NCBI GenBank assembly: GCA_963836075.1
Contig: CAWIIB010000009.1
Span: 1,312,001 to 1,376,000, forward strand
Length of the DNA stretch: 64,000 nt
Direction: 5' to 3'
Origin: an uncultured Acidobacteriota bacterium
GTDB taxonomy: Bacteria > Acidobacteriota > JAQAZP01
A program made the translations under genes and the position numbers. The notes under the pieces were generated by a model. The model did no database searches, was not told the DNA's origin, and worked only from the letters and a program-made list of their open reading frames with translations. Below, piece after piece: positions 1 through 34,390 of the stretch (positions within the stretch are counted from its first letter, which is position 1; every line of letters starts with the position of its first letter).

Positions 1-118
1 CTTCAAACGTTGGTGTACTCAATCTGTTGCTCACTCTTCTCGGGGCCGGACCCGCCGGTTCGATCGGGTGATCGGCAACGGTCGGCAGCCGGATACTGTT
101 CGTTCTTCAGGCGTAGCG

Positions 119-147
119 ACTATAGGAGGAAGACGGGGGACTGTCAA
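119..147 (-). promoter_or_regulatory. sigma70-type promoter for a gene running off the left edge of the window
   Basis: Minus strand TTGACA (147-142), 17-nt spacer, TATAGT (124-119); lies just downstream of the terminator at 175-204. Confidence 0.65.
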
Positions 148-174
148 CAGGATCGTCGGTGACGGGAAGGGAAA

Positions 175-204
175 GGGCCTCTCCCCCGGGGAGGGGAGAG
201 GCCC
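175..204 (-). terminator. Intrinsic terminator after the matrixin gene
   Basis: 12-bp perfect stem GGGCCTCTCCCC/GGGGAGAGGCCC, 8 nt after the stop codon, followed by TTTCCCTT on the minus strand. Confidence 0.75.
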
Positions 205-212
205 GTAAAAGA

Positions 213-1559
213 CTAGTTTCCAGTGGTGCTGCAGGAGTCGCTGTCCGTGCTGCCCGACGGTGAGTAGGGCGGCTGGTTGTACGGCGCTGCCGTGATGTCG
301 GTGCCGATGAGGGTGAACGTGTTCACCCCGTGCACTCCGGGCACGTCCGGCAGGTTGACCCCGAACGGCGTGTTGTAGCAGTAGCCGGGGCTCACGTTGG
401 TGGCGCCGGCCCGCCAGTTGAAATAGGTGGTGCCGCTGGCGAGGGTCACGTTGAGCTTGCCGTGGAGCCGGCGGGTGAACCAGTCGTCGTTGCAGAGCTG
501 GGGCCACAGCTGCACCGTGTAGGGCAGGGTGCCGCTTTCCGGGACACAGCCGATGATCGTGTGCATCGTGTCCCCTGACAGGGTGACGGTCAGCGTCAGG
601 TTGTAGTCGTTTTCCGCCCCGGAGGCGCCGATGACGCGGGTGTAATAGGTGCCGGCCGGGAGGCCGGTCCCCGACACCGTCTCGTTGTCGGTGGAGGTCG
701 TGGCGATATCCAACAGGGACTGGGCCGGGTTGTAGAGGTAGAGGCTCAGGTTGCCGCTGGCGTGGGTGAAGGTGATATCCACCTGGACGTTGGCTCCCTC
801 GCTGACGCTGAAGGAGAAATAGTCCTCGTCGCCGGAGCAGATCTGCAGGTTGTTGATCGTGCCGGCGCTGATTGCACTGGCCCCGGCGAACGAGTCGTTG
901 TCCTCGTAGCCGTCGTCGGTGCAGCCGCCGCAGACACCGTAGATCGCCTGGATGCCGGCGATGTCGTCGGAATGCAGGGTCCGGGCGTAGGTCTGGCCCG
1001 GGCTGCCGTAGCCATACATCGTTTTGGCCGAGTCACCGCCGCCGTAGAGGTCTGCGAGGCAGAGGTAGTGGCCGAACTCGTGGGTCGCGATGTTCCAGAT
1101 GTCGAACTGGCTGTACGTTGGGGTGCCCACGCCGTTCCAGGTGTAGCTCTGGTCATTGAACACCAGGTCGTTCTCGGTGACGTTGCCGCCTGAGGTCCAG
1201 ATGTAGGTGGCCGCGATGTAGCCGCCGCCGTCGGGCGGGGTGGTATCGAAATAGACCAGGTTGATATTGTTGTAGGTCACGCTGGTGCCTGTGGTGGTGC
1301 CGCCGTAGGTGAACTCGAAGCAGGCATTGGCGCCGTTCCAGGCGCCCGCGCCGGCCTGGATGGCGGCGATCTGTTCGGCGGCGGTGCCGGCGGCGGAGTC
1401 GACACAGTTGGGGTTGATGCGATAGTTCTCGCCCATCGGGCTGGACTGGTAATCCCAGTCATAACCGCAGAGGCCGTAACCGGCGGCGTTCTGAGCCGGG
1501 CCGGCCAGGGTCAGCAGCAGGCCGACCAGGGCGATCAGGGTAATCCGGGTGAATTTCAT
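213..1559 (-). CDS. Secreted matrixin-like (M10/metzincin) metalloprotease with PPC domain and uncharacterised C-terminal domain
   Basis: AAGGAGG RBS before ATG 1559; signal peptide; HEFGHYLCLAD zinc motif; Met-turn (KTMYGY); LHSDDIAGIQAIYG; DDGYEDND followed by PPC-like DEDYFSF...LYLY...GTYY. Confidence 0.85.
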   Translation of the reverse strand: MKFTRITLIALVGLLLTLAGPAQNAAGYGLCGYDWDYQSSPMGENYRINPNCVDSAAGTAAEQIAAIQAGAGAWNGANACFEFTYGGTTTGTSVTYNNINLVYFDTTPPDGGGYIAATYIWTSGGNVTENDLVFNDQSYTWNGVGTPTYSQFDIWNIATHEFGHYLCLADLYGGGDSAKTMYGYGSPGQTYARTLHSDDIAGIQAIYGVCGGCTDDGYEDNDSFAGASAISAGTINNLQICSGDEDYFSFSVSEGANVQVDITFTHASGNLSLYLYNPAQSLLDIATTSTDNETVSGTGLPAGTYYTRVIGASGAENDYNLTLTVTLSGDTMHTIIGCVPESGTLPYTVQLWPQLCNDDWFTRRLHGKLNVTLASGTTYFNWRAGATNVSPGYCYNTPFGVNLPDVPGVHGVNTFTLIGTDITAAPYNQPPYSPSGSTDSDSCSTTGN

Positions 1560-1637
1560 TCTCGATATCCTCCTTCTCTCATTCGCTGGGCGGAAAGGCA
1601 AATATGTGCGCACATTCATCATCGGGTGCCGATCCGT

Positions 1638-2153
1638 TTACTGCTGGGCCAGAATTTCGGTCCTGATGTTCTGGAGCAGCTCGTCGGCGGGGAGCCCGCC
1701 CTCCATGGTCAGCGTGCCGCAGTTGGGGGCGGACTGGTAGGCGATACCGTCCACCACCACATACTTGCCCTGGAACCAGCCGGCCAGCCGGTTTCCGCTG
1801 TTCTTGAGGAAGAGGATCACCGATTCACCTTCGCTGAAGCTGGGCGCCTCGGACATCCGCATGGTCTGGTCGCCCACGGTGCCGCCGGGGATGGTCACTT
1901 CCACCTCAACGCTCTTCTCGCCCTTGAGATGTTCGGTGATCAGCACGGTGGCCCGGGTGTAAATCCGGCCGTCCTCGATTGCGAAGCACTCTGTCCGCAC
2001 CACCTCGCCGGTGACGATCTGGTCGGCACGGGCGGTGAGTGTGGCCAGGTCCACGTTCTCGGTCAGCGCCGCGGCCTGATGCGTGGACACAAGCGCCAGC
2101 AGGACGAAGGTCCCGAGAAGAAAGACGGAATAGATGAGTTTTTTGCCGGTCAC
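1638..2153 (-). CDS. Secreted protein resembling the N-terminal pro-like domain found on many bacterial matrixins
   Basis: GTG start with AAGGAGG RBS; signal peptide; DLATLTARADQIVTGEV...LKG...IPGGTVG...APSFSEGESVILFL pattern. Confidence 0.75.
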   Translation of the reverse strand: MTGKKLIYSVFLLGTFVLLALVSTHQAAALTENVDLATLTARADQIVTGEVVRTECFAIEDGRIYTRATVLITEHLKGEKSVEVEVTIPGGTVGDQTMRMSEAPSFSEGESVILFLKNSGNRLAGWFQGKYVVVDGIAYQSAPNCGTLTMEGGLPADELLQNIRTEILAQQ

Positions 2154-2459
2154 AACAACCTCCTTTTAGATACGGATTTCCTCACAGCCAGTTATTGATT
2201 GATCGCAGCCTTAGCAGCGTGCAGACATACAACACAACGGGATAGATGGGTGCCCCTGCGGTTGACGGAGAAACCACCGCAACCATTGCGGTGACGGCGA
2301 ACAGCGGTTTTCCCCAACCGGGCGCCACCCGGGCGCTGTCAGTCGGACTGCAACCAGCCAACTCGGGATCGCCGGCTGCTGGAGGAGAGTGGGCCATGGT
2401 CGGAAGAACAAAGGCCCTGCAGCCGGGTTACCCTGCAACAATCAAACTTCAACAAGATA

Positions 2460-2488
2460 AATATAGGGATATTGGTCAACTATGTAAA
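2460..2488 (-). promoter_or_regulatory. sigma70-type promoter for the 2153/1559 genes, giving a ~300-nt leader
   Basis: Minus strand TTTACA, 17-nt spacer, TATATT, within an AT-rich patch. Confidence 0.5.
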
Positions 2489-2563
2489 GAGAAAAGGATA
2501 GGCTTCGGCGGGTTTATTAAAAAAAATTTATTCAACGAATGGGGATGAGACGCTGAAAACCGT

Positions 2564-3094
2564 CTATTTATCAGTGTCCAGCAGCTTCCTGAGCTCATTT
2601 TCCAGGGTCGCCACCTCGATTTCACGGCCCAGGGTCCGGACCTTGCGGCCCTCGGTGCCGCTGTACAAGGCACAGCCGAAATCCCAGGCGGAGGGGACCA
2701 CCAGGCCTTCCCAGTGGCGGAGAAAGAAGATCCCGCTGACGCCCACCGCCAACCCCTGGGGCATGTCGCTGGCCGTGAACGTCTGTCCACCGAACTCCCC
2801 GCCGAGGATGGCGAACTCGGTCAGCGTGCGTGCCGCCAGTTCACCCTTGTAGCGGTGGGTGACCCGGAGGGTGAAGACGGTGATCACGGCCTCCTTGAAC
2901 CCGGGGATGTCATCCCGCAGTTCGCAGCGCCGGCCGACGATCTCGCCGGCCACGATATCCTCCGACTTTTCCGTCATCCAGGCCAGGTCCACTTCCGGGG
3001 CGATGGAGGCCGGCGCCGGTGTCCCACCCGACAGGAAGAGGGCAAGCAGGGACAGAAACAGGGCGGCGCTGGCGGTCTGGCTGGCTCTGCTCAT
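2564..3094 (-). CDS. Secreted paralog of the 1638-2153 protein
   Basis: GAGGAG RBS before ATG 3094; signal peptide; VDLAWMTEKSEDIVAGEIV...YKG...ILGGEFGGQT...P..G.SGIFFL aligns by eye with 1638-2153. Confidence 0.75.
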   Translation of the reverse strand: MSRASQTASAALFLSLLALFLSGGTPAPASIAPEVDLAWMTEKSEDIVAGEIVGRRCELRDDIPGFKEAVITVFTLRVTHRYKGELAARTLTEFAILGGEFGGQTFTASDMPQGLAVGVSGIFFLRHWEGLVVPSAWDFGCALYSGTEGRKVRTLGREIEVATLENELRKLLDTDK

Positions 3095-3195
3095 CGTTAT
3101 CTCCTCGGTCCGGTGAACCTGGTTGGTACACCTGTCAATATAGGCCCCGTGGGCTTCTTTGTAAAGTATCGGCATAGTGTGGGTTCTTGATGAAG

Positions 3196-3372
3196 AGGTG
3201 ACAGCCACCTGTTTTCTGTCAATCAGCCATTGTTAAACACCACGAGAACAATCGGTGACAGTCACCAATTTCTCCCAGTGCTATGAGATCGTTGAAATAA
3301 TTGGTGACTGTCACTTGTCTTTCAAGGCGAATTATTCTGGTGGCAACGAGTAAAAAATAGGTGACTGTCACT
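3196..3372. repeat. Cluster of four GGTGAC(A/T)GTCACC-type palindromes forming nested inverted pairs (REP/REPIN-like)
   Basis: Copies at 3196-3210, 3254-3266, 3303-3314 and 3360-3371; 3255-3270 and 3299-3314 form a perfect 16-bp inverted repeat; outer pair matches 16/18. Confidence 0.8.
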
Positions 3373-3374
3373 GC

Positions 3375-4091
3375 TTACAGCAGGCGTTCACGGGCGTGGG
3401 TGCGCCTGAGGGCCAGGCCGAGGAGAGCGAAGGCCCCGCCCAGCACCAGCATGCGGTTGATCACCGCGATGCGGATGAATTCTTCGTAGGGCAGGTCGCG
3501 GGCCAGTTCCTGGATGTTGATGAAGGGATAGATGATCGACTCGTTCCAGCCGCCCTGGGTGAAGAAGACCAGGAAGAGGACAATGCTGGACAGCAGCGCC
3601 CCGCCGTTGGTGGAGCGGGTGACGATGGAGAAGAGAACCGTCATGTTGCCGAAAAAAAGCGCCGGGACCATGCTGTTCAACAGCACCTGGAGAAAGGGGA
3701 AGTCGGTGATGGCGACATAGGTCAGCACGGCCAGCATCAACTGGAGAACGAAGATGGCGATGTAGACGGTCAGTGCCTTGAGCAGCCAGACCCGGTAGCG
3801 CGATCGGGAGATGGCGAACATCACCTCGATGGTCCCGGTTTCACGCTCCTGGAGCACCAGTTGCATGCCCAGCAGGATGGCCAGGAAGACGCCGGGGACG
3901 GCCAGGATCATGTTCAGCACGTCCGTCGGCCCGTAGGGCTCATTGTCGCCAAAGGCGTTCATCAGCCAGATGATGACGAAGTAGACCAGTCCGCCCACCA
4001 GCAGGAACCAGTAGCGGGTGGAGAAGGTCACCTTGAGGCAGAGCCGGAAGAGCAGCAGCCACGACCCGATTCTTCCACGCATCTTTGCCAT
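3375..4091 (-). CDS. ABC-2 type transporter permease
   Basis: About six TM helices; QERETGTIEVMFAISRSRYRVWLLK matches the ABC-2 ExExGT..L...P.SR......K coupling motif; start reassigned to MAKMRG. Confidence 0.85.
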   Translation of the reverse strand: MAKMRGRIGSWLLLFRLCLKVTFSTRYWFLLVGGLVYFVIIWLMNAFGDNEPYGPTDVLNMILAVPGVFLAILLGMQLVLQERETGTIEVMFAISRSRYRVWLLKALTVYIAIFVLQLMLAVLTYVAITDFPFLQVLLNSMVPALFFGNMTVLFSIVTRSTNGGALLSSIVLFLVFFTQGGWNESIIYPFINIQELARDLPYEEFIRIAVINRMLVLGGAFALLGLALRRTHARERLL

Positions 4092-4120
4092 CGCACGTTT
4101 CTCTCTTTCTTCCCCCGTCA

Positions 4121-4194
4121 GGTCGGGCCGTGTTGCTCCTGAGCGACGTCGGAGGTCCGCCGACCGGAGCGAAGAGCAATATGGCCTGACCCCC
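4121..4194. repeat. Imperfect intergenic inverted repeat (GGGGTCAGGCC-type, REP-like)
   Basis: Arms 4121-4138 and 4174-4191 match 15/18; occupies the only gap inside the transporter operon. Confidence 0.55.
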
Positions 4195-7100
4195 TTACAC
4201 CGGCGCGGTTCCGCCGCGCAGGTAGAGATAGGCGTCCTCGAGATTCGGCTCCGCGTCTTCCGCGGCCAGGCCTTCCGGCGGGCCGTCGGCCAGGAAACGC
4301 AGCCGGATACGGTCAAAGCCCTCGCCGATGTGGTTGACCACCTTCAGCCGTTTGGACAGTTCGGGCAGTCGCTGCTCTTCAGTCACCGCCTCGAAGACCT
4401 TGCCCCGGGTGCGGTCGATCATTTCCTCGACGGTGCCGTCAAAGACCACCCGGCCCTTGTCGATCACCGCCACCCGGTTGCAGGTGCCGGAGATGTCCTC
4501 CACGATGTGGGTGGAGAAGATGACGATCCGCTCCTTGGCCAGCTCGGCCAGCAGGTTGCGGAACCGGATCCGTTCCTTGGGGTCGAGGCCGGCGGTGGGC
4601 TCGTCCACCACGATGATCCGCGGCAGGTGCAGCAGCGCGGTGGCGATCCCCACCCGCTGCTTCATCCCCCCGGAGTAGCCCTTCAGTTTCTCGTCCTTCC
4701 GTTCGAAGAGGGCCACCCGCTTCAGCACGCCGCTGACCAGTTCTTCCCGCTCCTCGCGGTCGTAGATCTCGTTGAGCAGCGCGTAGTAGTTGAGCAGTTC
4801 CCAGGCAGTGAAGTTCTCGTAGACCCCGAAGTTCTGCGGCAGGTAGCCCACCAGGCTCTGAACCGCGTCACGGTGCTCCCGGGGGTCGCGGCCGTTGATC
4901 GCCACCGTGCCCCGGCTCTGCTCGTAGATGTTGCAGATCACCCGCATCAGGGTGGTCTTGCCCGCGCCGTTGGGCCCCAGCAGACCGAACATCCCGGCGC
5001 CGATGTCCAGGGACAGCCCGCGCAGCGCCGCCACCCGCTCCTTCTCGTGACCCACCCGTGGAATGACACTGACCAGTCGCCGCCAGGTGCGGGCCAGCCG
5101 CTTGAAGATGTTGCCGCCCCGGCCCCTGGTGTTCGTTTCGCCGCTCCGCAGTTGGCGGCCACTGCTCAGGGCCATGGCCGCCAGGCCGAGGATGGCGGTG
5201 AGGGTGAGGGTGAAGCCGTAGTGCATCTGGCAGGCCACGTGGGCCTGGACCAGGGCCAGGGTTGCCAGCGCAAGGCCGAAGACCAGGTTCAGCCAGCGGG
5301 TTTTCGAGAAGGGGATCGGTACCCCGGGCGCCGGTTCCCCACCCCGCCGCAGCCGCCACAACGCGGTGATGGTGACGATGAAATCGCGGACGAAATACCA
5401 GGTCACTCCGATGAAGACAAAGAGCCAGAACCGGTTCTCGAAGTAGAGCAGGAGGTAGAAGAGCAGGGCCAGCAGGGGGATCTTCCAGATCAGGTTGACC
5501 GCCAGCCGGCGCCTCGTTTCCATGGGCATGCCGCGCTGCCGGGCGTGCTTCAGCCAGCGACCGTACTGCTTCCAGCCGCGGAGGAAGGGGCCGTCCTCAC
5601 CGTAGACTTTCTTCAGCTCCCGCACCGCGATGTCCAGTGGCTGGTCTGCACCAAAGATCTCCCGCCGCTCTTTCCCCCGGGCCAGCCAGAGGCCAAAACG
5701 GACCAGGCCCAGGCCGGCAAACCAGATCGGCAGAAGGAAGATGATCCGCCAGACCTCGGAGTCGATCCAGCCCAACTTGAAGTAGAGTGCCCAGATCACC
5801 ACGCCGGCCCCCAGGGTGCCGGCCAGCGCCCAGGGCAGGCCCAGAGTCTCGCGTATCCAGCGGCCGATGAAACGGAAGGAGAGAAAGCCCATGGGGATCA
5901 GCAGCAGGGTGCCGATGGTGGAGGTGGCCATGCCGCCGATCACCGCGATGGCGAAGGGCGGCCAGATCTCGTTCTCGCCGCCCATGCGCATGGCCAGCGG
6001 CAGCATGCCGGCGATGGTGGTGGTGGCGGTCATGACCACCGGCCGGAAGCGGGCCCGGCCCGAAGCGATGATCGCCCGTTCGGGGCGGAAACCCCGTTTG
6101 CGCACCAGGTGCCGGGCGTAATCGATGAGCAGGATGCCGTTGTTCACCACCATGCCCAGCAGCACCAGCAGGGCGAGAAAGACCAGCGGCCCGATGCCCA
6201 CCCCGGTGAGCGCCAGCAGGATCAGCACCCCGATCATCGCCATGGGGATGGTGAAGAGGATCAGCAGCGGGTGGGCGAACGACTCGAAGGAGGCGGCGAG
6301 GATCATGTAGACCAGGATCAGCGCCACGTAGAGCATGAACTTCCAGACGTTCTCCTCCTCGTCTTCCCGCTCGGCGGTGAGGGTGTAGCCCCGGGGCAGG
6401 GGGATGGAGAGCAGCAGGTCGTCCACCGCGGAGCGCAGTTCATCCAGCCGGGTCTGAGTGCCCAGGACCTCATCCTCATAGCCGTAGTAGACACGGATGC
6501 GGTGGGTGCCCTGGTGGCGTTTGAGGCTGGGCAGTCCGGCTTCCTGTTTGAAATCCATCAGCTCGGTGACCCGGACGAATGAGCCGTTGGGCGTGGGGAT
6601 GGAGAGGTCGCGCAGGTCGCGGAAGCTCCAATCACCTTCCTCGCCCAGGCGAACCTGGATCTGCATCTCGTTGTCCTGCCGGTCGCGGTAGGGGTAGGTG
6701 ACCTGGTCCCCTTCCCGGCGGGCCATCCAGAGCAGGCCCATCACCTGCTGCATGGAGAGGCCCCAGGCAGAGAGGTCCTGGTAGCGGGCCTCCAACCGCA
6801 CCTCGGGGGTGACGTCGTCCACGTCCATGCGAATGGTGCGGTCATCCACTCCTTCGATCTGTTCCAGCCGGTATTTCACCTCGTTGGCCAGGTCCACCAG
6901 CCGGGGCATCTCCTCGCCGGTGAGCACCACCGTCTCCACGGCGCGGGCCAGGCCCAGCGCCGCCGCGCCCCCCTCTTCTTCGTCGCCGCCGCCGGCGCTC
7001 TGGAACTGCGAGCGGTCGAACAGGATCGTCGCCCCGCTGACCTCCTCGGTGCGGTCCTTCAGTTTGTTGCGGATCGCACCCAGTGAATCGTCGGACGTCC

Positions 7101-8961
7101 GTTCGTCTTTCGGCAGCAGCTCCACGGTGATAAAGGCCTCGCCCTCGCGGATGGTGGAGCGGGTCATCTTGCGGTCGGGCAGGTCGAGGGTCATGGCCTC
7201 CACCTGGGCGGTGACCGCTTCGGTGGACTCCAGGTCGGCCCCCTCGGGCATCTCCAGCTTCATTTCGATCCGGCTGTCCGGCGGCTGGCTGCTGCCGTAG
7301 AGGTAGAGGATCACCGGCGTGGTGATCAGCACCGTGAGCATCAGCACGGCGAAGAACATGACCGTGGTCAGGACCTGGTGCCGGGAGCACTGTTTGAGCA
7401 GCAGGGTGTAGATCTGCAGGATGCGCTGGGGCCGTTTGCGGTCCGCGGCGGGATCGAAACCCTGGCCGGACATTGTCCGCTCCCCGCGCCGGCCCAGGCG
7501 GCTGGCCAGCATGGGGATCAGGGTCACCGCCACCAGCAGCGAGATCAGCAGGGGGAAGATGATCGCCAGGGCAAAGTCGTTGTACAGCTCGGTGAACTCG
7601 GTCTTGACCCAGAGCAGCGGGGTGAAGACCACCACCGTGGTCACCGTACCGACGATGATCGCCTTGAACACCTCGGAACTGCCGGTGACCGCCGCTACCA
7701 TCCGGCTGAGCCCCCGCTCGCGGTGCCGGGTGATGCTCTCCAGCACCACGATGGCGTTGTCCACCAAGAGACCGATGGAAAGGGTCAGGCCGATGAGGGT
7801 CAGCACGTCGATGGCCAGGCCGGCGGCGGCCATCAGGTTGAAGGTCAGCAGCAGGGAGACCGGGATGGCCAGTGAGACCACCACCACCGGGCCGGGCCGC
7901 TTGAGGAAGATCAACAGCACCAGCAGGGCCAGCAGGCCGCCGCTCAGCGCCAGCTTCTTCACCCGGTTGATGTCCTTTTCGATCAACTCCGCGGCGTCGA
8001 AGGCGGTGGTGATCCGCACCCCCGGCGCGGCCAGCTCGTCGTTGATCTCCGCGATCTCCTGGCGCAGCAGCTGGGCCACCTTGATCAGGTTCGACTGCTC
8101 GTCCTTCTGGATCAGGATGCTCACCGTGGGGTGCCCGTCCACCCGCGACATCTGGGTCTGGCGGTCCGGTGCCTGCTCCACCCGGGCCACGTCGCGGAGG
8201 AAGACCATTCCGGCCCCGGTCGTCAGCGGCAGGTCGCGGATCTCCTGCAGCGAGGTGAAGCGGCCCTCCACCATGGCGAACTGCCGGCGGCCGTCCACCT
8301 CCACCTCGCCCACGAACTCCCGCCGCTGGTGGTAGCCGTTCAGAGTGGCCAGCACCTGGGTGGGCATGATGCCGTAGGAGCGCAGGCGGTCCTCGTCGAG
8401 AGTCACCTGCACCGCCAGCTGCCGGCCGCCAAAGACCTGAACGCTGACCACCCCGTTCACCGACTCCAGCTGGGGCCGGATCTTCTCCTCGGCCAGCCGG
8501 CGGACAAAGGGCAGCCCCCCCGGGCCGGCCACGTTGAGCTGCATGACGAAGTTGGAGAAGGCCGAAGTGTCGAAGCGTTCGACGCGCAGCGTCGCCGTTT
8601 CAGGCAGCAGGCCCACAAGCCCGTTGGCCTTCTGTTCCAGCTTGAGATAGGCGTAGTTGAGGTCGGTGCCCAGCTTGTACGAGACGGTGATCATCCCGTA
8701 GTTCTGGTTGGAGACGGCCTCGATTTCCTCGATGTCCTCGAGGGTGGAGATCTCGGCCTCCAGCCGCTCGATCAGGTCCTCCTCCACCTTCTCCGGCGAG
8801 GCGCCGGGGTAGCCGGCGATGACGAACATCTTGGGGTAGATGTAGTTGGGGATCAGCTGCACCGGCAGGGTGGTGTAGCTGATCACGCCCAGCACCCCCA
8901 GGGCGATGAAGAACATCACCGTGGTCACCGGGCGCTTGATGGCGAGGGTGGGGAGGTTCAC
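4195..8961 (-). CDS. RND (AcrB-family) permease fused to extra TM segments and a C-terminal ABC ATPase domain, 1588 aa
   Basis: RND motifs KRPV, [35 protein letters not shown] Walker A [9 protein letters not shown], Q-loop YLPQ, signature YSGGMKQR, Walker B [8 protein letters not shown], H-loop STH; one uninterrupted ORF; GTGA overlap with the upstream stop. Confidence 0.92.
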   Translation of the reverse strand: [1588 protein letters not shown]

Positions 8962-11900
8962 GCGTCCTTCCCCCTGCCGGCGGGCCGCAGGCGGTCGATC
9001 AGGTCATAGGCCACCGGCAGCACCACCAGGGTCAGAATGGTGGAGGTGACCAGCCCGCCGATGATGGCGTAGGCCAGCGGCGCCCGCAGTTCGGCCCCCT
9101 CGCCAAAGCCCAGGGAGAGGGGCAGCAGGGCGAGGATGGTGGTGGAACTGGTCATCAGGATCGGCCGCAGCCGGGCCTGTCCGGCGGCCAGCAGTGCCTC
9201 CTTGCGCTTCATCCCCCGGCGGCGCAATGTGTTGACGAAGTCGATGAGGATGATCCCGTCGTTCACGGCGATGCCGGCGAGGATGATGATGCCGATGAAG
9301 GCCATCACCGACAGCGGCAGGCCCGCGAAATAGAACAAGGCCGCCACGCCCACCCCGGCCATGGGGATGGTGAGCATGATGGTGAAGGGATGGACCAGCG
9401 ACTCGAACTGCGAGGCCATCACCATGTAGACCAGCAGGAGGGCCAGCAGCATGGCGAAGCGCAGCTTGTCGAACGACTCCTGGCGTCGCTGTTCTTCGCC
9501 GCCCACCAGGAAGCGGTAGCCCCGCGGCACGTTCATCCCCTCGAGGCGTGAGCCGATTTCGCCGCTCACCTCACTCAGCGTCACCCCTTCGGCCAGGTCG
9601 GCCTGGACCAGGGCCACCCGCGACTGGCCGCGGCGCAGGATCTCCCGCGGGCCGGTCTCGCTCTCCACCCGGGCGATGTCCTTGAGCAGGATCCGGGTGC
9701 CGGTGGGGTTCTCGATTTCCAGGTTGAGCAGCTGGTCGAGGTTCATCATCGGGTGGCGGATGGCGATGTCGCGGTCCTCGTCCTCGGCGCGGAAAATGGA
9801 GATCTCCTCACCGTAGAGCTTTCGCCTGACCAGCCGGGTGATGGTGGCCACGTCGAGACCCAGGCTGGCCGCGGTCATGCGGTCGATGTGAATCGCCAGT
9901 TCCTCGCGGCCGCCCTGGAAGCTGGTGCGCACGTTGTAGATGCCCTTGCCCCCGGCTTTCATCTCCTCCAGCTGGGCCGCCACCCCGTCACTGATCTCCC
10001 GCAGCCGGTCCACGTCCTGACCCCGCACCTCGATGCTCACCGGAGCGTCACCGGAGCCGATGGTCTGCTGCAGGGCGGTCTCGCCGAGATTGTATGTGGT
10101 CTCCAGGCCCGGGACGTCGCGCAGCACCGGGTCGATGGCGCCGATGATGGCCGAGGTGTGCAGGTCGCGTTCGGCGAAAGGCTTGAGCGAGACCAGGACC
10201 AGCGAGGTATTCTCGTCCCACACCTCTTCGGTGAGCAGCTCGTCCTCCAGCCGCCGTTTGCCGATGTCGCTGTAGACCGCGGTGATCTCTTCGCCGAAAT
10301 TCTCCAGCAACAGGTCCTCCACAAAGCCGGACACCGCGGCGGTGCGCTCCACCGGGGTCCCCTCGGGGAGCACCAGCCGGATGCCGAACTCGCCCTGGTC
10401 GGCCCGGGGCAGGAACTCGGTGCCGCTGCGCCTGAAGGCCTCGGCGGCAAAGAGGCCGAGGACCAGGGTGATGACCACCACGATCAGCTTGTGGTTCAGG
10501 GCCCAGACCAGCAGGCCGTTGTACGCCCTGCTGCGCACCACGTGCTCCGAAGCCGGGCCGGTCGCCGCAGTTCGTTTCTGTTTCAGCATCCGCGAGGCGA
10601 GCATGGGGATCAGCACCATGGCCACCACCAGCGAGCAGAGCAGCGAGATGCTCACCGTGAAGGCCTGTTCCTTGAGCAGCTCGCCGGTGATGTCGCCGAT
10701 GAAGACCACCGGCAGGAAAACCACGCAGGTGGTCAGGGTGGAGGCGAAGATGGCGCCGCCCACTTCCGAGGCACCGTCGATGGCCGCTTCGATCTTTCCC
10801 TTGCCCGCCTGGAGGTGGCGATAGATGTTCTCGATCACCACGATGGCATTGTCCACCAGCAGGCCCACCCCCAGGGCCAGGCCGCCGAGGGTCATGATGT
10901 TGAGGCTCAACCCGGCGAAATACATCAGCACGAAGGTGGCCACGATGGAGAGGGGGATGGCCAGGGCGATGACCAGGGTGGCGCCGAAGCTGCGCAGGAA
11001 GAGAAAGAGGATCACGATGGCCAGCAGCGCGCCGATCAGCGCCTGCTCCTCCACCTCGCGGATCGATCCGGTGATAAAACGGGCCTGGTCCCGGACCACC
11101 TGGAAGCGCACGCCGGGAAGCGAGCGGGACAGCTGGTCCAGGCTGCGGCGCACGTCGTCGCTCACCATCACCGTATTGCTGCCCCCCTCCTTGTGTACCG
11201 AGAGGCCTACCCCCTCGGTGCCGTTGATCCGCACCAGGTTGCGCACCTCCTTGTCCCCGTAGTAGACCCGGGCCACCCGGGAGAGGGGCACCGGTACCTT
11301 CAGCGGGTCGAAGGCGGTATTCTGGGAGACGAGGTCCGAGGGGGCCTTGCTGCGGTCGAGGTAGGCCACGGTGAGGGCGCGGAGCTGGTCCAGGTCGGAA
11401 AACCGGCCAACCCCCTTGATGACGTAGATCTTGCCCTCCTCCTCCAGCGTGCCGCCGGAGGTGTCCATATTGGCCTCCCTGACCCGGGAGGCCACGTCGT
11501 CCACGGTGATGCCGAATGAGTCCAGCAGGAACTCGTCGGTCTCGACGATCACTTCCCGCTCGCGGCCGCCGGAAATGCGCACCGCGGCCACACCGCGCAG
11601 CCGCTCCAGGGCCGGGCGGACATAGTCCTCGGCCAGCCGCCGCATTTCGTCCAGGTCGGCGCTGCTCTCGTCTTCGGCCGAGGGGAACATCCCCACCCGC
11701 AGCACCGGTGCGGCCTGGGGGTCGAAACGGCGGATGCTCAGGTTGTCCACTTCGCGGTCCGCCTGGAGGTAGCCGATATTCTTCTGCACCTCCAGCAGGG
11801 CAAAGTCCATGTCGCTGTCCCAGTAGAACTCCACGGTGACCATGATGCTGCCCACCCGGGAGACAGAGGAGACACGGGAGACGCCGCTGATGGTGCTCAG

Positions 11901-12113
11901 CTGGGACTCCAGCTGCTCGCCGAAGACGTCCTCCATCTCCCGCGGCGGCCGGTTCCCCGACTCGAGCACCACCACCACCTTGGGGCTGGAGATGTCGGGC
12001 AGCAGGTCGATGCCCAGCTTGTCCAGGGAGATGTAGCCGAGGAGCAGCACGCCGGTGAAGATCATCACCACGGTGACCGGGAAACGGACCGCGAGGTTGG
12101 CTATGGCTTTCAT
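8958..12113 (-). CDS. RND (AcrB/AcrD/AcrF family) permease
   Basis: 1051 aa; GLLVDNAIVVIENI, GIAVNDGIILIDF, RLRPILMT, FESLVHP; TGATG coupling to the MFP gene. Confidence 0.93.
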   Translation of the reverse strand: MKAIANLAVRFPVTVVMIFTGVLLLGYISLDKLGIDLLPDISSPKVVVVLESGNRPPREMEDVFGEQLESQLSTISGVSRVSSVSRVGSIMVTVEFYWDSDMDFALLEVQKNIGYLQADREVDNLSIRRFDPQAAPVLRVGMFPSAEDESSADLDEMRRLAEDYVRPALERLRGVAAVRISGGREREVIVETDEFLLDSFGITVDDVASRVREANMDTSGGTLEEEGKIYVIKGVGRFSDLDQLRALTVAYLDRSKAPSDLVSQNTAFDPLKVPVPLSRVARVYYGDKEVRNLVRINGTEGVGLSVHKEGGSNTVMVSDDVRRSLDQLSRSLPGVRFQVVRDQARFITGSIREVEEQALIGALLAIVILFLFLRSFGATLVIALAIPLSIVATFVLMYFAGLSLNIMTLGGLALGVGLLVDNAIVVIENIYRHLQAGKGKIEAAIDGASEVGGAIFASTLTTCVVFLPVVFIGDITGELLKEQAFTVSISLLCSLVVAMVLIPMLASRMLKQKRTAATGPASEHVVRSRAYNGLLVWALNHKLIVVVITLVLGLFAAEAFRRSGTEFLPRADQGEFGIRLVLPEGTPVERTAAVSGFVEDLLLENFGEEITAVYSDIGKRRLEDELLTEEVWDENTSLVLVSLKPFAERDLHTSAIIGAIDPVLRDVPGLETTYNLGETALQQTIGSGDAPVSIEVRGQDVDRLREISDGVAAQLEEMKAGGKGIYNVRTSFQGGREELAIHIDRMTAASLGLDVATITRLVRRKLYGEEISIFRAEDEDRDIAIRHPMMNLDQLLNLEIENPTGTRILLKDIARVESETGPREILRRGQSRVALVQADLAEGVTLSEVSGEIGSRLEGMNVPRGYRFLVGGEEQRRQESFDKLRFAMLLALLLVYMVMASQFESLVHPFTIMLTIPMAGVGVAALFYFAGLPLSVMAFIGIIILAGIAVNDGIILIDFVNTLRRRGMKRKEALLAAGQARLRPILMTSSTTILALLPLSLGFGEGAELRAPLAYAIIGGLVTSTILTLVVLPVAYDLIDRLRPAGRGKDA

Positions 12114-13195
12114 CAGGAACTGACCTTCACCGGTGTCTTGTCTTTCAGGGTCTCGTAGCCCTGGACCACCACGCGCTCGCCGGCCTCGATGCCGGAGAGG
12201 ATCTCCACCCGCTCCTCATCCTCCAGACCGGTGACCACCTCGCGCATCTCGGCCTTCTGCCGCGAGACGACAAAGACCGACGGCCGGTTGTTGCGCACCA
12301 CCACCGCGTGCCGCGGCACGACCAGGGCGTCCTCCCGGGAGCGGGTGACGATGTCGGCCTTGACGAACATGCCCGGCCGCACCAGCCCCTCGCGGTTCGA
12401 AAGCAGTACCTCGACGCGGAAGGTCCGTGACTGAGCCTGGATGGTGGGGCTGATGTAGCGCACCACGCCCTCGAAGACCTGGTCAGGGTAGGCGTAGTTG
12501 GAAACCCGGACCGCCATCCCCTCCTTGACCCTGGCGATGTCGCCGCCGGGCAGCTCCAGGTCGGCCAGCACCCGGGAGAAGTCCATCACCTCGGCCAGTT
12601 CTTCCCCGGCGGTGACCTTGGCCCCGTCCACCTCGCGGGTCAGCCAGGTCAACCGGCCGCTGATCGGGGCGAGGATCCGGGTCTGTTCCTCGACGATCAG
12701 GGTGTTTTCGTAGTTGTAGCGGGCGGTGGCCAGCGCGCTCTCGTAGTTCCTCATCTCCTGTTCGGAGACGAAGCCTTCCTCGAAGAGCCGTTGATAGCGC
12801 TGGTAATCATTCTCCGCTTTCTGCAACTCGGCGCGGCGGGCGTCGATGCCGCTCTTCTTGTTCACCCGCGTCTCTTCACTGTCCAGCAGGGCGATGACCT
12901 GGCCCTGTTTCACCGGGTCGCCCTCGATAAGCCGCCGGCCGTTGCCGCCCAGCCGGCCCAGGTTCAGATATCCGGTCATCGGCGCGTCCAGCTTGACCTC
13001 CTGGATCGCCCGCACCGAGCCGGTGGTGGTGAGGTGTTCCTCGATGCCGGCGCGGCCGGCTTCCTCCACCCGCACCGGGATTTTCACCTCCAGGCCGGCC
13101 TGGGATTCCGGTTCGCCGCACCCTGCAGTGAGGAGGAGCAGCGGAATGAGGCAGAGCGCCGCGACAATTGAGACCTGTGGGCATCTGGTGGTCAT
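12113..13195 (-). CDS. RND periplasmic adaptor (membrane fusion lipoprotein)
   Basis: Lipobox LTAGC; EGDPVKQGQVIA, ILAPISG, RPGMFV, SGIEAGERVVVQG; ATGA overlap with the upstream stop fixes the start at 13195. Confidence 0.9.
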   Translation of the reverse strand: MTTRCPQVSIVAALCLIPLLLLTAGCGEPESQAGLEVKIPVRVEEAGRAGIEEHLTTTGSVRAIQEVKLDAPMTGYLNLGRLGGNGRRLIEGDPVKQGQVIALLDSEETRVNKKSGIDARRAELQKAENDYQRYQRLFEEGFVSEQEMRNYESALATARYNYENTLIVEEQTRILAPISGRLTWLTREVDGAKVTAGEELAEVMDFSRVLADLELPGGDIARVKEGMAVRVSNYAYPDQVFEGVVRYISPTIQAQSRTFRVEVLLSNREGLVRPGMFVKADIVTRSREDALVVPRHAVVVRNNRPSVFVVSRQKAEMREVVTGLEDEERVEILSGIEAGERVVVQGYETLKDKTPVKVSS

Positions 13196-16100
13196 TCGGT
13201 TGCTCCTTCCTTGTCCTCGTCCGCGAAGGTGAATTTCACCGCGTCGGCGATCACCGCCCCGTCGGCCTGGTCGCTGAGGGTGACCACCGCCTCGTTGTCC
13301 GGAGAGAAATAGAACGTGCCGAGGCTGTTCCAGCCGATCTCCGCGACGGTGGCGTCGAGGCTCACCGTCTCCGGTCCGTCCTCGTGTTCGATGGTGTAGC
13401 TGTAGTTCGTACCCAGCTTCCGGTCGTCGGAGCGGGCGCGGAGGTTGCTCCCCTCCACGCCGATGAAGGCAAAGACCTCGTAGCGCCCCCGGCGGGGCAG
13501 TTCGGCGACCCAGCGGGCCGAAAACTCGCCCTCGCCGCCGCCCTTCATTTTCATGGTGTGGTTGTACAGGCCGTAGGCCTCGTCGCGGGTCCAGTTGACC
13601 CATTCGTCGGGGATGCCCCTGAGGTAGTCTTCCAGCTGGGGCCCGCCCTCCTCATCGTCGTCGTCACCCCTTGATGACCGCCAGCGCAGCAGCGAGCTGC
13701 CGGTTTCGCCGGCCAGGCTGAAGCCCGGGTCGAGATCATCGACGATCACCGTGAGCTCGTCCTCCGATTCACCGGTCTCCAGCACCGCCACCCGTTCGAA
13801 CGGTTCGGCCTGCACCGGCTCTTCGGGCAGCTTGAAATCCTTGGTCAGCGGTTCCTTGTTCCGGGCCAGGATGGGGTCCACCACCAGCCGTACCGGCTCG
13901 TCAGGCACCACCAGCGCCACCTCCACGGTCTGCAGGCCGTCGAGGCGCACCCGCCGTTCCACTTCGTCACCGCGGGTTTCAAAGTAGAGGATGGCGAACC
14001 CGGAAGCGTTCTCCTCGTTGGCCAGCTCCACCCGCACCTGGTAGAGCGGCGCTTCGCCGTCGGTGGCGATACGGTAGGCTTCGCTGTTCTTGATCCGGTA
14101 GCCCGGCAGGTCGGTGCTGTGGGTCCACTGCTGGAAGAGCCAATCCACGTCCTGGTCGGTCACTTCGGCGGCCAGCACGCGCAGGTCCTCCATGGTGTAC
14201 TGGCCGTACTGGTGGCGCTGCACCAGGCCGTTGACCAGCGCACGGAAGGCCTCCTCGCCGAGATACTCGCGCAGGGTGACCACGAAACCGCGGCCCTTGT
14301 GTCCCATCACATTGTAGAACAGCTCGGGGTCTTCTTCCGGCTCCATGTCGGCCAGTGGCGTGGCCTTGATCGACTTGTAGACCTGGTCGATGTTCACCGT
14401 GGCGTCGTAGAACGCCTCCTGCCAGCTGGAGTTGCCGGTGAAGCGGGCCTGGATCCCCTGGCCCAGCACCTGCTGGAAGTTGGTCATCATGTAGACCGAG
14501 GCAAAGGGCCGGGTCCCGGTGACTGTTTCCTTGAGATAGTTGTCGAGGCAGTAGCCGGCAACAGGGTAGAGCGGGCCGCTGGGGTCGAGACGGAAGCCCC
14601 AGAAGTTGGGCATGGCGTTCTGCAGCAGGCTGCCGCTGACCACATCGAGGTCGAAGAAGAGCTTGAGCATGTCGACCTTGATCTGGGCGGCGTCCACCTC
14701 CTCGTCGGCCTCTTCCGCCTGCTCGGTGCGAGTTTCGAAGGCCCGCTCGAAGTTGGCCGAGAAGAAGCCGGCCTCCTTGAGCATCACCACCCCCGGCTGG
14801 ATCAGCGGGTTGGGGCTGTCCCAGCCCTCCGAGTAGGCCCGCATGGCGCCGGGGACCTCCACCAGGCTCAGCGCCGGGTAGGGGTAGTCCAGACCGGTAC
14901 GTTCCTGGATGTCGGAGAGCTTCTTTTCCAGCTCTTCGTGGATCCTGTCCCGGGCGTCGTTGAAGAATTCGATGTTGGCCGCGTGGCTTTCGCTGAAATA
15001 GAAGGCCAGCTGCATCGGCCCCACTTCGCCCTTGATCACCTGGTACTCGCCGCTGTTCACCGAGAGGCCGGGCACCGGCACATCGGAGCGGTAGGTGAAG
15101 ATCGCGTTCCCGCCCGAGTCATCCCGGGCCGTCATGGCGCCCTGGGTCACCGCCTGCTGTCCGTCCGGGACGGTGATCCGCAGGCCGGCGGTGGCGAAGT
15201 TGTCCGGGCGCTTGTCCGGATAGGTGTAGCCGTGGTCGACGTTGGGCGAGGGATACCACCTCGCCTGGGGCAGCAGCACCGAGTAGCGCGAACCGATGTA
15301 GGACGGCAGGTAGCCGAGAATGGCCACGTTGTTGCGCGCCTGGCCCTTCAGTTCGTTGATTTCGTTCTCGCTGTTGAGGAAGATGGTATTCAGCGCCAAA
15401 GTTCCGCCATAGGCCACGGTCACCTCGGTTTCGCTGCCCGGCGTCAGGGCCGGGATGTTCACCACCAGGGTGGTGTCCCCCCGCTGGAATTCCAGCGCGC
15501 TCCCCCCGGCGCCGGTGACCGACTCCACGTCGAGGCCGCTGTTCAGCACAAAGGTCAGCTTCTCCTGGGATTCGGCCCCGTCGTTGCGCACGGTCATCCG
15601 GGCGGTGGCCGTGAGCCGGCTGCCGCGGGCCAGGTCGAGGTCCATGTCGTAGTGGGTCACCCGGGTCAGCGGGTTCTCCAGCAGCGCCTGCTGCTCGGCG
15701 CGGGCCGCCTCGCGCAGGGTGTAGTCGTTGTGTCCCGACCAGAGGCCGTAGCCGACGTAGCAGAGGGCCAGGATGGCCGAGACGGCGGCGGTGCCCAGCA
15801 CCGGCCGCGAAACCCGGTCGTCCTGCTTGAGCCGCGGGTAGAGCATGGCGGTGAGGGCCAGCAGCAGCAGGGTCAGGGCGATGATATATCCCCGCTGGAA
15901 CAGCAGCAGCCCGAAATCGGTGAAACCGATCAGGTCGGAGTGGAAGGTGGTCAGCGAATAGCCGCTGAAATCAACCAGCGGCACAAACTGGGCCTTGATC
16001 CAGCGGCCGAGGCTGATGAAGACCACCAGGTCGATGATCACGTAGGCGTGGGCGATGATGATCGCCGCCACCCGGCTTTTGGTCACCAGGGTGAGGAAAA

Positions 16101-16611
16101 AGACCAGGGCGACGATAAAGGCCAGCCCGGGAAGAATGGTGACGAAGAGGTGCATCAGGTAGGGGCCCAGACGGAAGGGCAGGTGGAAGAGCGGGATGAA
16201 CCGCAGGCAGACCGAGACCAGGGTGAGGATCAGGGCCGTGGCAAAGGTGGGGACCAGCGCCCCGAGGAATTTGCCCCAGACCAGCCCGAAGGTGCTCAGC
16301 GGGCGCGAGTGCACCACGCCGTCCACCCGGCATTTGCTGTCCTTGCTCAGGAAGTCATAGCAGAACCAGATCAGCAGCACGGCGAATAGCGTGATGAACT
16401 GGGAGTAGACGATCTGCAGCACCAGCCCGGCGGAGAGCAGCCCGATGGTGCCCGAGTAGCCGGAGAAGAAGTTGTGCAGGAAGGCGTAATAGATGTTGAT
16501 GATCACCAGGAAGAGCAGCCCGAGGCAGACCAGGATCCAGAACTTCCAGGTGCGGCGGAGGAGCCGGCTCTCGTACTTGGCCAGGCCCATGATTCCGGCA
16601 AGGTCAATCAT
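13192..16611 (-). CDS. ABC-2 permease fused to an M1-aminopeptidase-like domain lacking HExxH and a golvesin/xanthan-lyase-like C-terminal domain
   Basis: N-terminal TMD (SRPLSTFGLVWGKFLG); M1-like segments HYDMDL, FVLNSGL, WYP, YPYPALSLVEVP, KG...LREYLGEEAF; C-terminal VDD.DPGF...GRYEV...GWNSLGTFYF...VIADAVKF; GGAGGAG RBS before ATG 16611. Confidence 0.8.
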   Translation of the reverse strand: MIDLAGIMGLAKYESRLLRRTWKFWILVCLGLLFLVIINIYYAFLHNFFSGYSGTIGLLSAGLVLQIVYSQFITLFAVLLIWFCYDFLSKDSKCRVDGVVHSRPLSTFGLVWGKFLGALVPTFATALILTLVSVCLRFIPLFHLPFRLGPYLMHLFVTILPGLAFIVALVFFLTLVTKSRVAAIIIAHAYVIIDLVVFISLGRWIKAQFVPLVDFSGYSLTTFHSDLIGFTDFGLLLFQRGYIIALTLLLLALTAMLYPRLKQDDRVSRPVLGTAAVSAILALCYVGYGLWSGHNDYTLREAARAEQQALLENPLTRVTHYDMDLDLARGSRLTATARMTVRNDGAESQEKLTFVLNSGLDVESVTGAGGSALEFQRGDTTLVVNIPALTPGSETEVTVAYGGTLALNTIFLNSENEINELKGQARNNVAILGYLPSYIGSRYSVLLPQARWYPSPNVDHGYTYPDKRPDNFATAGLRITVPDGQQAVTQGAMTARDDSGGNAIFTYRSDVPVPGLSVNSGEYQVIKGEVGPMQLAFYFSESHAANIEFFNDARDRIHEELEKKLSDIQERTGLDYPYPALSLVEVPGAMRAYSEGWDSPNPLIQPGVVMLKEAGFFSANFERAFETRTEQAEEADEEVDAAQIKVDMLKLFFDLDVVSGSLLQNAMPNFWGFRLDPSGPLYPVAGYCLDNYLKETVTGTRPFASVYMMTNFQQVLGQGIQARFTGNSSWQEAFYDATVNIDQVYKSIKATPLADMEPEEDPELFYNVMGHKGRGFVVTLREYLGEEAFRALVNGLVQRHQYGQYTMEDLRVLAAEVTDQDVDWLFQQWTHSTDLPGYRIKNSEAYRIATDGEAPLYQVRVELANEENASGFAILYFETRGDEVERRVRLDGLQTVEVALVVPDEPVRLVVDPILARNKEPLTKDFKLPEEPVQAEPFERVAVLETGESEDELTVIVDDLDPGFSLAGETGSSLLRWRSSRGDDDDEEGGPQLEDYLRGIPDEWVNWTRDEAYGLYNHTMKMKGGGEGEFSARWVAELPRRGRYEVFAFIGVEGSNLRARSDDRKLGTNYSYTIEHEDGPETVSLDATVAEIGWNSLGTFYFSPDNEAVVTLSDQADGAVIADAVKFTFADEDKEGATE

Positions 16612-17491: not shown

Positions 17492-17594
17492 TTATTGAGT
17501 CCTCTCTCTGGATCTTCCCCCGAATCGGGCAGGGAAGTCCTTTTATTTACGTAACCGTGCAGTTTCGGGTTTCATCAAATGAGGACACAATTCC

Positions 17595-17688
17595 TGGCAT
17601 TGCGAGGAGCCGTCGAAGACGGCGACGAAGCAATCTCCCGGCAATAGTGATGCATCTTTTGGATTGCTTCGCTACGCTCGCAATTACA
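17595..17688. repeat. Palindromic CATTGCGAG...CGAAGCAATC / GATTGCTTCG...CTCGCAAT element, copy 1
   Basis: Nested stems 17599-17606/17677-17684 and 17626-17635/17662-17671; second copy at 36907-36991. Confidence 0.8.
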
Positions 17689-17773
17689 GGTCGTGAATAC
17701 CGGTTTCCCTGTGGACGTAATTATGTACAATAGAAAGCCACAGTGACAGCAGAAGTCAGCGGAGGGCAGAACA

Positions 17774-18532: not shown

Positions 18533-18556
18533 TTCTCCGGGAGGAGCGGTCCACCA

Positions 18557-34386: not shown

Positions 34387-34390
<4 letters not shown>

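Follow-up and report, generated by a model that had tools for sequence, protein, structure and literature searches.

An RND permease and an ABC ATPase encoded in one frame

The stretch of DNA analyzed here (the window) comprises 64,000 nucleotides of a contig from an uncultured Acidobacteriota bacterium (assembly GCA_963836075.1, contig CAWIIB010000009.1, positions 1,312,001 to 1,376,000). On its reverse strand, positions 4195-8961 form one uninterrupted frame of 1588 amino acid residues, in which a resistance-nodulation-division (RND) permease is joined to the ATPase of an ATP-binding cassette (ABC) transporter. The GTG start codon of this gene overlaps the stop codon of an unfused RND gene upstream (GTGA). 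The product is a conserved single polypeptide, in which a 12-helix permease of the AcrB type is followed by two extra helices and then by an ABC-2-class nucleotide-binding domain (NBD) with a 188-residue split. The first strand of this domain (beta-1) and its adenine-stacking tyrosine are parted from beta-2 and Walker A by an insert, in which an amphipathic helix is followed by two transmembrane hairpins and another cytoplasmic helix. A preliminary description of the locus, made from its letters and open reading frames, had placed the segment IAVRELKKVYG at 5631-5599 and the resumption of the NBD at 5034, with about 188 codons in between; these coordinates and counts are right, and the resumed domain starts with VAALRGL at residue 1310. 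Coordinates of all features are collected in Table 1.

The match of the RND half to the Pfam ACR_tran model extends over model positions 3-1020 of 1021, which corresponds to the full-length 12-helix architecture. The NCBIfam model RND_permease_2 gives 540.8 bits, below its cut-off of 1250. In the ATPase half, the Pfam ABC_tran model matches residues 1314-1457 (E 8e-27). The full-length NCBIfam model GldA aligns only from its position 17, corresponding to residue 1312; therefore, beta-1 and the A-loop are missing beside the rest of the NBD. Because the ABC_tran model begins after beta-1, the split is invisible to routine annotation. The remaining motifs are in place: Walker A (GPNGAGKTT, residues 1329-1337, window 4951-4977), the Q-loop (Q1376), the signature (SGGM, 1430-1433), Walker B (DEP, 1453-1455, with the catalytic glutamate E1454) and the H-loop (H1485). 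All five, which the preliminary description had called intact, are present in the fusion and invariant among 49 aligned members, whose identity to the module of the window (residues 1030-1588) is 28-91%.

In sequence, the NBD lies nearest to the GldA and DrrA models. Scores against NCBIfam equivalog models stay under the curated cut-offs for GldA (174 versus 402), for DrrA (170 versus 312) and for every other equivalog. The closest folds to the NBD in a Foldseek search against PDB are the ABC-2-type ATPases TM_1403 (4yer) and NosF (7osf, 7o0y); these matches concern the NBD part only, come without residue ranges and have no bearing on beta-1.

The displaced first strand is conserved like the catalytic core

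The aromatic residue of the A-loop lies 209 residues before the Walker A glycine in the fusion, whereas in contiguous NBDs this spacing is commonly 23. We compared the fused NBD with a free ABC ATPase encoded in the same window, whose beta-1 and beta-2 are contiguous. The two are 45% identical (124/275) from residue 16 of the free ATPase to its end. Over the first strand, IAVRELKKVY shares five of ten residues with the free ATPase, at an E value of 2.1 as a lone pair, which by itself would prove nothing. The pairwise alignment proposed in the preliminary description covers the two domains from residue 16 onward; for beta-1 alone it is not significant.

Profile comparison gave a clearer answer. 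A position-specific scoring matrix (PSSM) was trained on beta-1 of 40 ordinary single-NBD proteins. Its top score over all 1588 residues falls at residue 1111 (13.4 bits; the runner-up has 6.0 bits), and this score was attained by 17 of 20,000 shuffles of residues 1030-1309. The best match also lies at the homologous place, 181-226 residues before Walker A, in 27 of 28 other family representatives; the lone exception, P0046, has a weaker motif. The A-loop aromatic characteristic of PF00005 NBDs is accordingly found at Y1120, where the best PSSM match lies.

The alignment agrees with this placement. Residue 1118 is lysine in 49 of 49 members, and residue 1120 is always aromatic (tyrosine in 47, phenylalanine in two). 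With the five closest homologs left out, the entropy per column is 1.54 for beta-1 and the A-loop, 1.53 for beta-2/beta-3 and 1.54 for the rest of the NBD, compared with 2.8-3.1 for the flanking loops and membrane helices. Judged by these columns, the displaced strand is constrained as strongly as the catalytic core. The earlier expectations that beta-1 would be conserved in homologs, and that the split is kept by selection and is not a chance join, both held.

Predicted structure and topology of the insert and linker

A crude hydropathy count finds four helices in the insert of the window protein. Over 49 relatives, the same count gives four insert helices in 23, three in 14, two in eight, five in three and one in one. 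The method undercalls: P0056, a relative 34% identical to the window protein, gets three insert helices by hydropathy and four by AlphaFold2 (AF2). Two linker helices are counted in 47 of the 49 relatives. The insert is 161-207 residues long over the family.

We modeled residues 1030-1588 by AF2 with the 49-row alignment (mean predicted local distance difference test score, pLDDT, 88; predicted template modeling score, pTM, 0.78). Model positions, which are given in Table 1, become protein residue numbers when 1029 is added. In this model the two-helix linker, predicted as three helical segments, leads to the beta-1 strand, whose block has a pLDDT of 96. A helix comes next, then four long helices and a further helix. 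The chain then enters strands 281-291 and 294-299 and continues as a normal NBD. The insert is predicted mostly with pLDDT above 80. The model of P0056 (pLDDT 91.6, pTM 0.82) has an identical order of structural elements, with beta-1 as strand 64-73 at a block pLDDT of 97; beta-1 is a 10-residue strand in both models. DSSP, which was used to assign secondary structure, calls a strand only for residues bridged to another strand. Since all strands other than beta-1 in either model belong to the NBD, beta-1 probably sits in the antiparallel sheet of that domain, a placement that draws on its DSSP state and on pLDDT. What the models suggest is a normal, catalytically competent NBD that would be held at the inner membrane face by six helices.

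These results match most of what had been claimed or expected at the outset, namely that the split of the NBD follows its A-loop and links the domain to the membrane (coordinates, hydropathy and both models agree on this), that beta-1 is a strand in predicted structures and probably belongs to the NBD, that the insert contains roughly four helices, an even number, and that about two more helices link the RND core to the NBD. A periplasmic beta-1, which would have spoken against the split, is contradicted by the distribution of charges. Lysine and arginine residues average 10.5 in the loop that carries beta-1, 1.9 in the one separating the hairpins and 7.7 beyond the last helix, versus 0.3, 1.05 and 0.3 for the three outer turns, all short. 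The charges obey the positive-inside rule. The C-terminus of the RND permease is cytoplasmic in AcrB, and it is followed here by two helices and then by four, so beta-1 and the NBD are both predicted, from hydropathy and charge counts, to be cytoplasmic.

Number and position of the insert helices are conserved, whereas their sequences are conserved poorly (entropy 2.8-2.9 versus 1.54 for beta-1 and the NBD core). This suits an anchor or scaffold no less than a transmission element. No Pfam family matches residues 1030-1310, and a search of the ESM Atlas for structures resembling residues 1036-1310 gave no usable match. When the three hairpins of linker and insert (residues 1031-1272; window 5146-5871) were compared with each other by hhalign, the linker hairpin matched insert hairpin 1 with a probability of 81%, and insert hairpin 1 matched hairpin 2 with 63%. 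The hairpins may be repeats, although such scores often arise from the composition of membrane helices alone.

Table 1. Features of the fusion gene and of its neighbors in the window.
Feature	Residues or length	Window position	Strand	Basis
Whole RND::ABC fusion gene (GTG start; stop TAA at 4195-4197)	1588 aa	4195..8961	-	
RND permease core	5-1029	5875..8949	-	Pfam ACR_tran E 1e-183; alignments to MdtB, MexB and MdtF chains
Linker, two extra transmembrane helices, chain back to cytoplasm (predicted)	1031-1099	5665..5871	-	Hydropathy; AF2 helices 2-10, 13-33, 40-70
Displaced NBD beta-1 and A-loop, IAVRELKKVYG (K1118, Y1120)	1111-1121	5599..5631	-	AF2 strand 82-91; PSSM; alignment
Insert	1122-1309 (188 aa)	5035..5598	-	Sequence coordinates; hydropathy; AF2; alignment
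Basic aromatic amphipathic helix directly after the A-loop (family motif RFxREW)	1125-1142	5536..5589	-	AF2 helix 96-113; alignment
Insert transmembrane hairpin 1	1150-1205	5347..5514	-	AF2 helices 121-144, 148-176; hydropathy
Insert transmembrane hairpin 2	1222-1272	5146..5298	-	AF2 helices 193-214, 219-243; hydropathy
Basic cytoplasmic helix back to beta-2 (predicted)	1284-1299	5065..5112	-	AF2 helix 255-270
Rest of NBD, beta-2 to C-terminal domain	1310-1588	4198..5034	-	Pfam; NCBIfam; motifs; Foldseek
Downstream ABC-2 permease (from ATG at 4091)	238 aa	3375..4091	-	ABC2_membrane_2 (PF12679) E 4.9e-7, 29.7 bits, cut-off 27.2
Upstream unfused RND paralog, 30% identical to fused RND (TM10 VNDG)	1051 aa	8958..12113	-	Alignment
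Membrane-fusion (periplasmic adaptor) protein, longest open reading frame		12113..13603	-	Pfam HlyD_D23 E 1.6e-24
Free ABC ATPase paralog, contiguous beta-1/beta-2	295 aa	16604..17491	-	Pairwise alignment

The fusion defines a family with long inserts

A HMMER search with residues 1030-1588 was run against 1.84 billion cluster representatives (50% identity), and the best 150 were taken. About 46 of them form a long-insert class, in which the A-loop aromatic lies 181-227 residues before Walker A; 28 of these are full length (1550-1601 residues). The PSSM script had listed 50 proteins of this kind, four of which contain several NBDs and were set aside, the match lying in another NBD. The canonical spacing of 21-27 residues, commonly 23, is found in 65 of the best 150. 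Five close homologs are 1585-1589 residues long.

Among 41 genomes of the phylum (the genome of the window included), six, from three families, carry the module in open frames of 1599-1834 residues; a seventh match covers part of the NBD only. The module is also carried by one Bacteroidales genome, and one cluster has members from Latescibacterota. A scan of genome contigs with the family alignment recovered one true insert-type locus (L021) among 80; the scan used generic Walker A and Walker B patterns only and therefore says little on taxonomic spread, which was sampled, not surveyed. Automatic names in the JGI database record the double assignment to Clusters of Orthologous Groups (COG) as "AcrB/ABC-type multidrug transport system ATPase subunit".

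Candidates of 501-649 residues for a stand-alone split NBD without RND were considered and rejected where checked: P0037, P0038 and P0050 are fragments, whereas P0024 and P0056 fall outside that result. P0037 (526 residues) lies on a 2.4-kb contig and its cluster includes a 1567-residue member, and both P0038 and P0050 start inside transmembrane helices (TM) 10-11 of the RND permease.

Sister fusions of RND and NBD exist in sequence databases without the four-helix insert and, by eye, also without the two-helix linker; our literature search found no publication on them. Six of them (P0061, P0071, P0084, P0086, P0090 and P0096; 1389-1445 residues) have a short insert, with a spacing of 46-72 residues between the aromatic and Walker A according to the PSSM. 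In P0061 the small insert occupies the same site between beta-1 and beta-2 and is soluble. Two more (P0106, 1344 residues; P0144, 1328 residues) have no insert and the canonical spacing of 23. Several of the short-insert fusions contain a conserved segment, WRW(I/V)LLFW, after the RND part. Outside the fusions, P0047, a protein of 590 residues with two NBDs and no RND, has a soluble insertion of about 28 residues between beta-1 and beta-2 of its second NBD, another sign that this turn tolerates insertions.

A second copy of the operon occurs in the genome of the window on a 29-kb contig, C3 (L009, positions 1-20000; module match C3:11915-12866), and is 76-79% identical in the module. This copy is split over two frames at about residue 1249, and the whole contig breaks into many short overlapping open reading frames. 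The copy could come from an error-rich contig, a binned relative (contamination of the assembly is 4.6%) or a decaying paralog.

Operon neighbors

The fusion gene is followed, after a gap of 103 bases, by a gene for a small ABC-2 permease and is preceded by genes for the unfused RND paralog and a membrane-fusion protein. The order adaptor, RND, fusion, small permease is the same in 7/7 loci examined, which are those of the window, of two genomes of the same genus, of three genomes from two other families of the phylum and of one Bacteroidales genome. The Bacteroidales locus also has a gene for an outer-membrane efflux protein (OEP), in front of the others. In the window, the HlyD_D23 match begins at residue 227 of the longest adaptor frame, versus residues 87-91 in relatives; the true start probably lies near 13190, just past the stop codon of the preceding gene.

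That preceding gene (window 13192-16632, reverse strand) encodes a protein of 1146 residues in which an ABC-2 membrane domain is combined with an M1 peptidase and a Golvesin C-terminal domain, and it adjoins the free ABC ATPase. The large protein is conserved in a locus of the same genus (L020), and both genes adjoin the operon in the genus of the window. In two of the three other genomes of the phylum, the operon is likewise adjoined by a free ATPase and a large ABC-2 membrane protein, the latter from incomplete sequence in which no peptidase domain was seen; the pair is absent beside the operon of the third (G004). We treat the free ATPase and the large ABC-2 protein as a separate ABC system.

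The proton relay of the RND half

In AcrB, the proton relay consists of Asp407 and Asp408 in TM4, Lys940 in TM10 and Arg971 in TM11. This classical set is incomplete in the fused RND. Its TM4 reads VDNA, with the equivalent of D407 kept and D408 replaced by Asn, compared with VDDA in MdtB and MexB; its TM10 reads VNNG, with K940 replaced by Asn, compared with AKNA in MdtF; the RFRP motif is kept. The TM4 pair is DN in 34/34 long-insert fusions, and TM10 has NN or NP in the 31 where this helix was found. The unfused RND partner has an acidic TM10 residue in 6/7 loci.

Two unfused RND paralogs encoded elsewhere in the genome of the window (C9:1842762-1846229 and C1:1213378-1216491) share the DN/NN pattern. 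Degeneracy of the relay therefore belongs to the clade and not to the fusion as such, and we dropped this pattern as specific evidence that ATP replaces the proton relay. The clade, as seen in these genes and in the unfused RND gene of the window (8958-12113), has Asp-Asn in TM4 and Asn-Asn, Asn-Asp or Asn-Pro in TM10.

Comparison with known systems

The nearest precedent for the site of the insert is the regulatory insertion of NBD1 in CFTR (residues 404-435). According to PMC2217481, this insertion has about 30 residues and separates strands 1 and 2 of an antiparallel sheet whose central strand is strand 1; the same source describes that the channel is functional when its chain is cut at the insertion (split channels 414+433). 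The insert of the fusion also lies between strands 1 and 2. The CFTR insertion is soluble and mobile and has a protein kinase A site, whereas the insert of the fusion family has 161-207 residues and four predicted membrane helices and belongs to a bacterial ABC-2-class NBD fused to an RND permease. The 188-residue insert of the window is not a short, soluble, disordered, phosphorylatable segment of the CFTR type. Because sister fusions have a short insert or none, and CFTR tolerates both an insertion and a chain break, the turn between beta-1 and beta-2 is a permissive loop. That a four-helix membrane domain is tolerated in it widens the CFTR precedent, a soluble loop, to a module integral to the membrane, and the split bears on the folding of NBDs and on the rules of gene prediction and domain annotation.

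The gene arrangement resembles that of MdtABC, with tandem RND paralogs behind one gene for a membrane-fusion protein in all seven loci. A review (PMC8277102) names MdtBC as a rare heterotrimeric HAE-1 pump. In contrast to MdtABC, the paralogs described here are 30% identical, both have DN in TM4 and Asn in place of Lys940, and one bears an ABC module; a heteromer would be putative, being suggested by the genes.

MacAB-TolC is similar in that an ATPase domain is covalently joined to a permease that works with an adaptor and an outer-membrane factor. In MacB, however, the NBD comes first in the chain, before an FtsX-type permease of four helices that has a periplasmic domain of its own, whereas the periplasmic head of the fusion is the RND porter domain; Pfam gives no match of the fusion to FtsX (PF02687) or MacB_PCD (PF12704).

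Exporters of the ABC-2/type V kind, such as DrrAB, NosDFY and TM_1403, share with the fusion an NBD fold near those of TM_1403 and NosF, a sequence near the DrrA and GldA models, and a neighboring ABC-2 permease. We know of no described exporter of this kind with a split NBD or with a fusion to RND. Our literature search, in which the review PMC8277102 was covered in part and subscription journals were mostly outside the coverage, returned no description of RND-ABC fusions or of NBDs with a membrane insertion. An RND pump fused to a membrane-split NBD is apparently an undescribed design.

Possible working of the fusion

RND pumps, which are driven by protons, and ABC pumps, which are driven by ATP, are usually treated as separate efflux engines; here, a sizeable natural family merges them. 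Cooperation of single-component pumps of the inner membrane with tripartite pumps is known from genetics. We consider it somewhat probable that the fusion is part of a two-stage machine made of a tripartite RND pump and an ATP-driven ABC-2 exporter tethered to it, with the extra helices as anchor and scaffold. Gene order and a complex prediction suggest that the fused NBD would power the small ABC-2 permease encoded directly downstream. The RND half would have as partners the RND paralog encoded upstream, the membrane-fusion protein and an outer-membrane factor. Such an efflux machine would have two energy sources: its ATP-driven ABC-2 part would bring the substrate out of the cytoplasm or the inner leaflet, and its RND part would expel it over the outer membrane. 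The main role of the insert and linker helices would be to hold the NBD, and probably the permease as well, next to the RND part. More speculatively, a 2:1 heterotrimer of fused and unfused RND subunits, as in MdtB2C, could supply the two NBDs of an ABC dimer. The family offers a ready system for asking whether substrate is handed over between inner-membrane and trans-envelope pumps, and how a threefold RND assembly squares with a twofold ABC dimer.

Several points weigh against this proposal. The prediction of a complex between the module and the downstream permease lends it weak support. Its score (interaction prediction score from aligned errors, ipSAE, 0.56, versus 0.04 for the best control; partner pLDDT at least 71; at least 72% of contacts shared among runs) passes a mark that was reached by 58 of 80 solved complexes and by 2 of 110 mismatched pairs; scores of 0.60 or less came from only seven of the 80 solved complexes and from both passing mismatches. 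Since the pairing of NBDs with ABC-2 permeases is textbook knowledge, the score may have passed through resemblance to structures already solved. Comparison by hhalign gave no similarity between the downstream permease and the six extra helices (probability 0.3-0.4%). The pairing of beta-1 with the NBD sheet is judged from DSSP state and pLDDT, and the alignments behind the two AF2 models are largely the same. Finally, the RND trimer has threefold symmetry and the ABC dimer twofold symmetry, and the 2:1 stoichiometry that would reconcile them is speculative.

The coupling put forward in the preliminary description, which is mechanical or allosteric, differs from the two-stage machine in the role of the insert: ATP would move the amphipathic helix and the hairpins, and thereby the transmembrane domain of the RND permease, so as to gate or drive the RND cycle. 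It is attractive that the insert starts directly after the Tyr-Gly of the A-loop, that the helix following it contains the moderately conserved RFxREW motif, and that two of the three classical relay residues (D408 and K940, both replaced by Asn) are missing from the fused RND in the 34 long-insert fusions, where TM10 is readable, while the unfused partner retains its acidic TM10 residue in six of the seven loci. The loss of the relay, however, is not specific to the fusion, since unfused paralogs of the same genome show the same residues; the sequences of the insert helices show little conservation, the insert of sister fusions is short and soluble or missing altogether, and the conserved downstream ABC-2 permease would be left without a role. 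Taken together, we regard such coupling as unlikely. Equally doubtful, in our estimate, is an ATP-controlled RND pump in which two fused subunits of a 2:1 RND heterotrimer would join their NBDs and ATP binding at the A-loop would be relayed via the insert helices so as to gate or drive the RND cycle. If true, one polypeptide would combine an engine run by the proton-motive force with one run by ATP, and this would not be a case of two pumps tied together.

The two linker helices and the four insert helices might also be the own membrane domain of the NBD, which would make the fusion a self-contained half-transporter and assign the permease elsewhere. Six helices are the usual number in an ABC-2 membrane domain, the amphipathic helices that flank the hairpins in the AF2 model resemble interface helices, and the hhalign scores hint at a repeat among the hairpins, possibly through composition. 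Against this, the region has neither a Pfam match nor similarity to the ABC-2 permease and is conserved poorly in sequence; the small permease is syntenic in all seven loci and scores well above controls with the module; and the short-insert and no-insert fusions have no such six helices. We find this arrangement quite improbable, more so than coupling.

An artefact or chance event (a frameshift or assembly join of two genes, or a coincidental match of IAVRELKKVYG beside an NBD that lacks beta-1), to which the weak pairwise match of beta-1 and the frameshifted copy on C3 of the same assembly could be related, is extremely improbable in view of the same architecture in dozens of independent clusters and seven genomes, of a beta-1 as conserved as the NBD core, of the PSSM test and the two AF2 models, and of the short forms that, where checked, are fragments.

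Other observations in the window and genome

The window contains a second, ordinary RND operon (40635-46125, reverse strand) with genes for an RND protein of 1122 residues and an outer-membrane efflux protein. A frame of 360 residues at 44000-45082, in the usual position of the adaptor, is a candidate for that role.

Outside the window, a stop-free frame of 1565 residues in the same genome (C9:127651-132345, reverse strand) leads from a classical RND, with DD in TM4, into a sequence resembling an outer-membrane factor (OMF), which begins with a lipoprotein-type signal (…LPLTGC…). This frame could be an RND-OMF fusion or the result of a missed stop codon.

At 34387-36816 of the window (reverse strand), an open reading frame of 809 residues combines a complete GatB (GatB_N, E 1e-115, and GatB_Yqey) with a C-terminal Peptidase_MA_2 domain (E 5e-14), and thereby unites, unusually, a subunit of a tRNA amidotransferase and a domain of metallopeptidase-like type.

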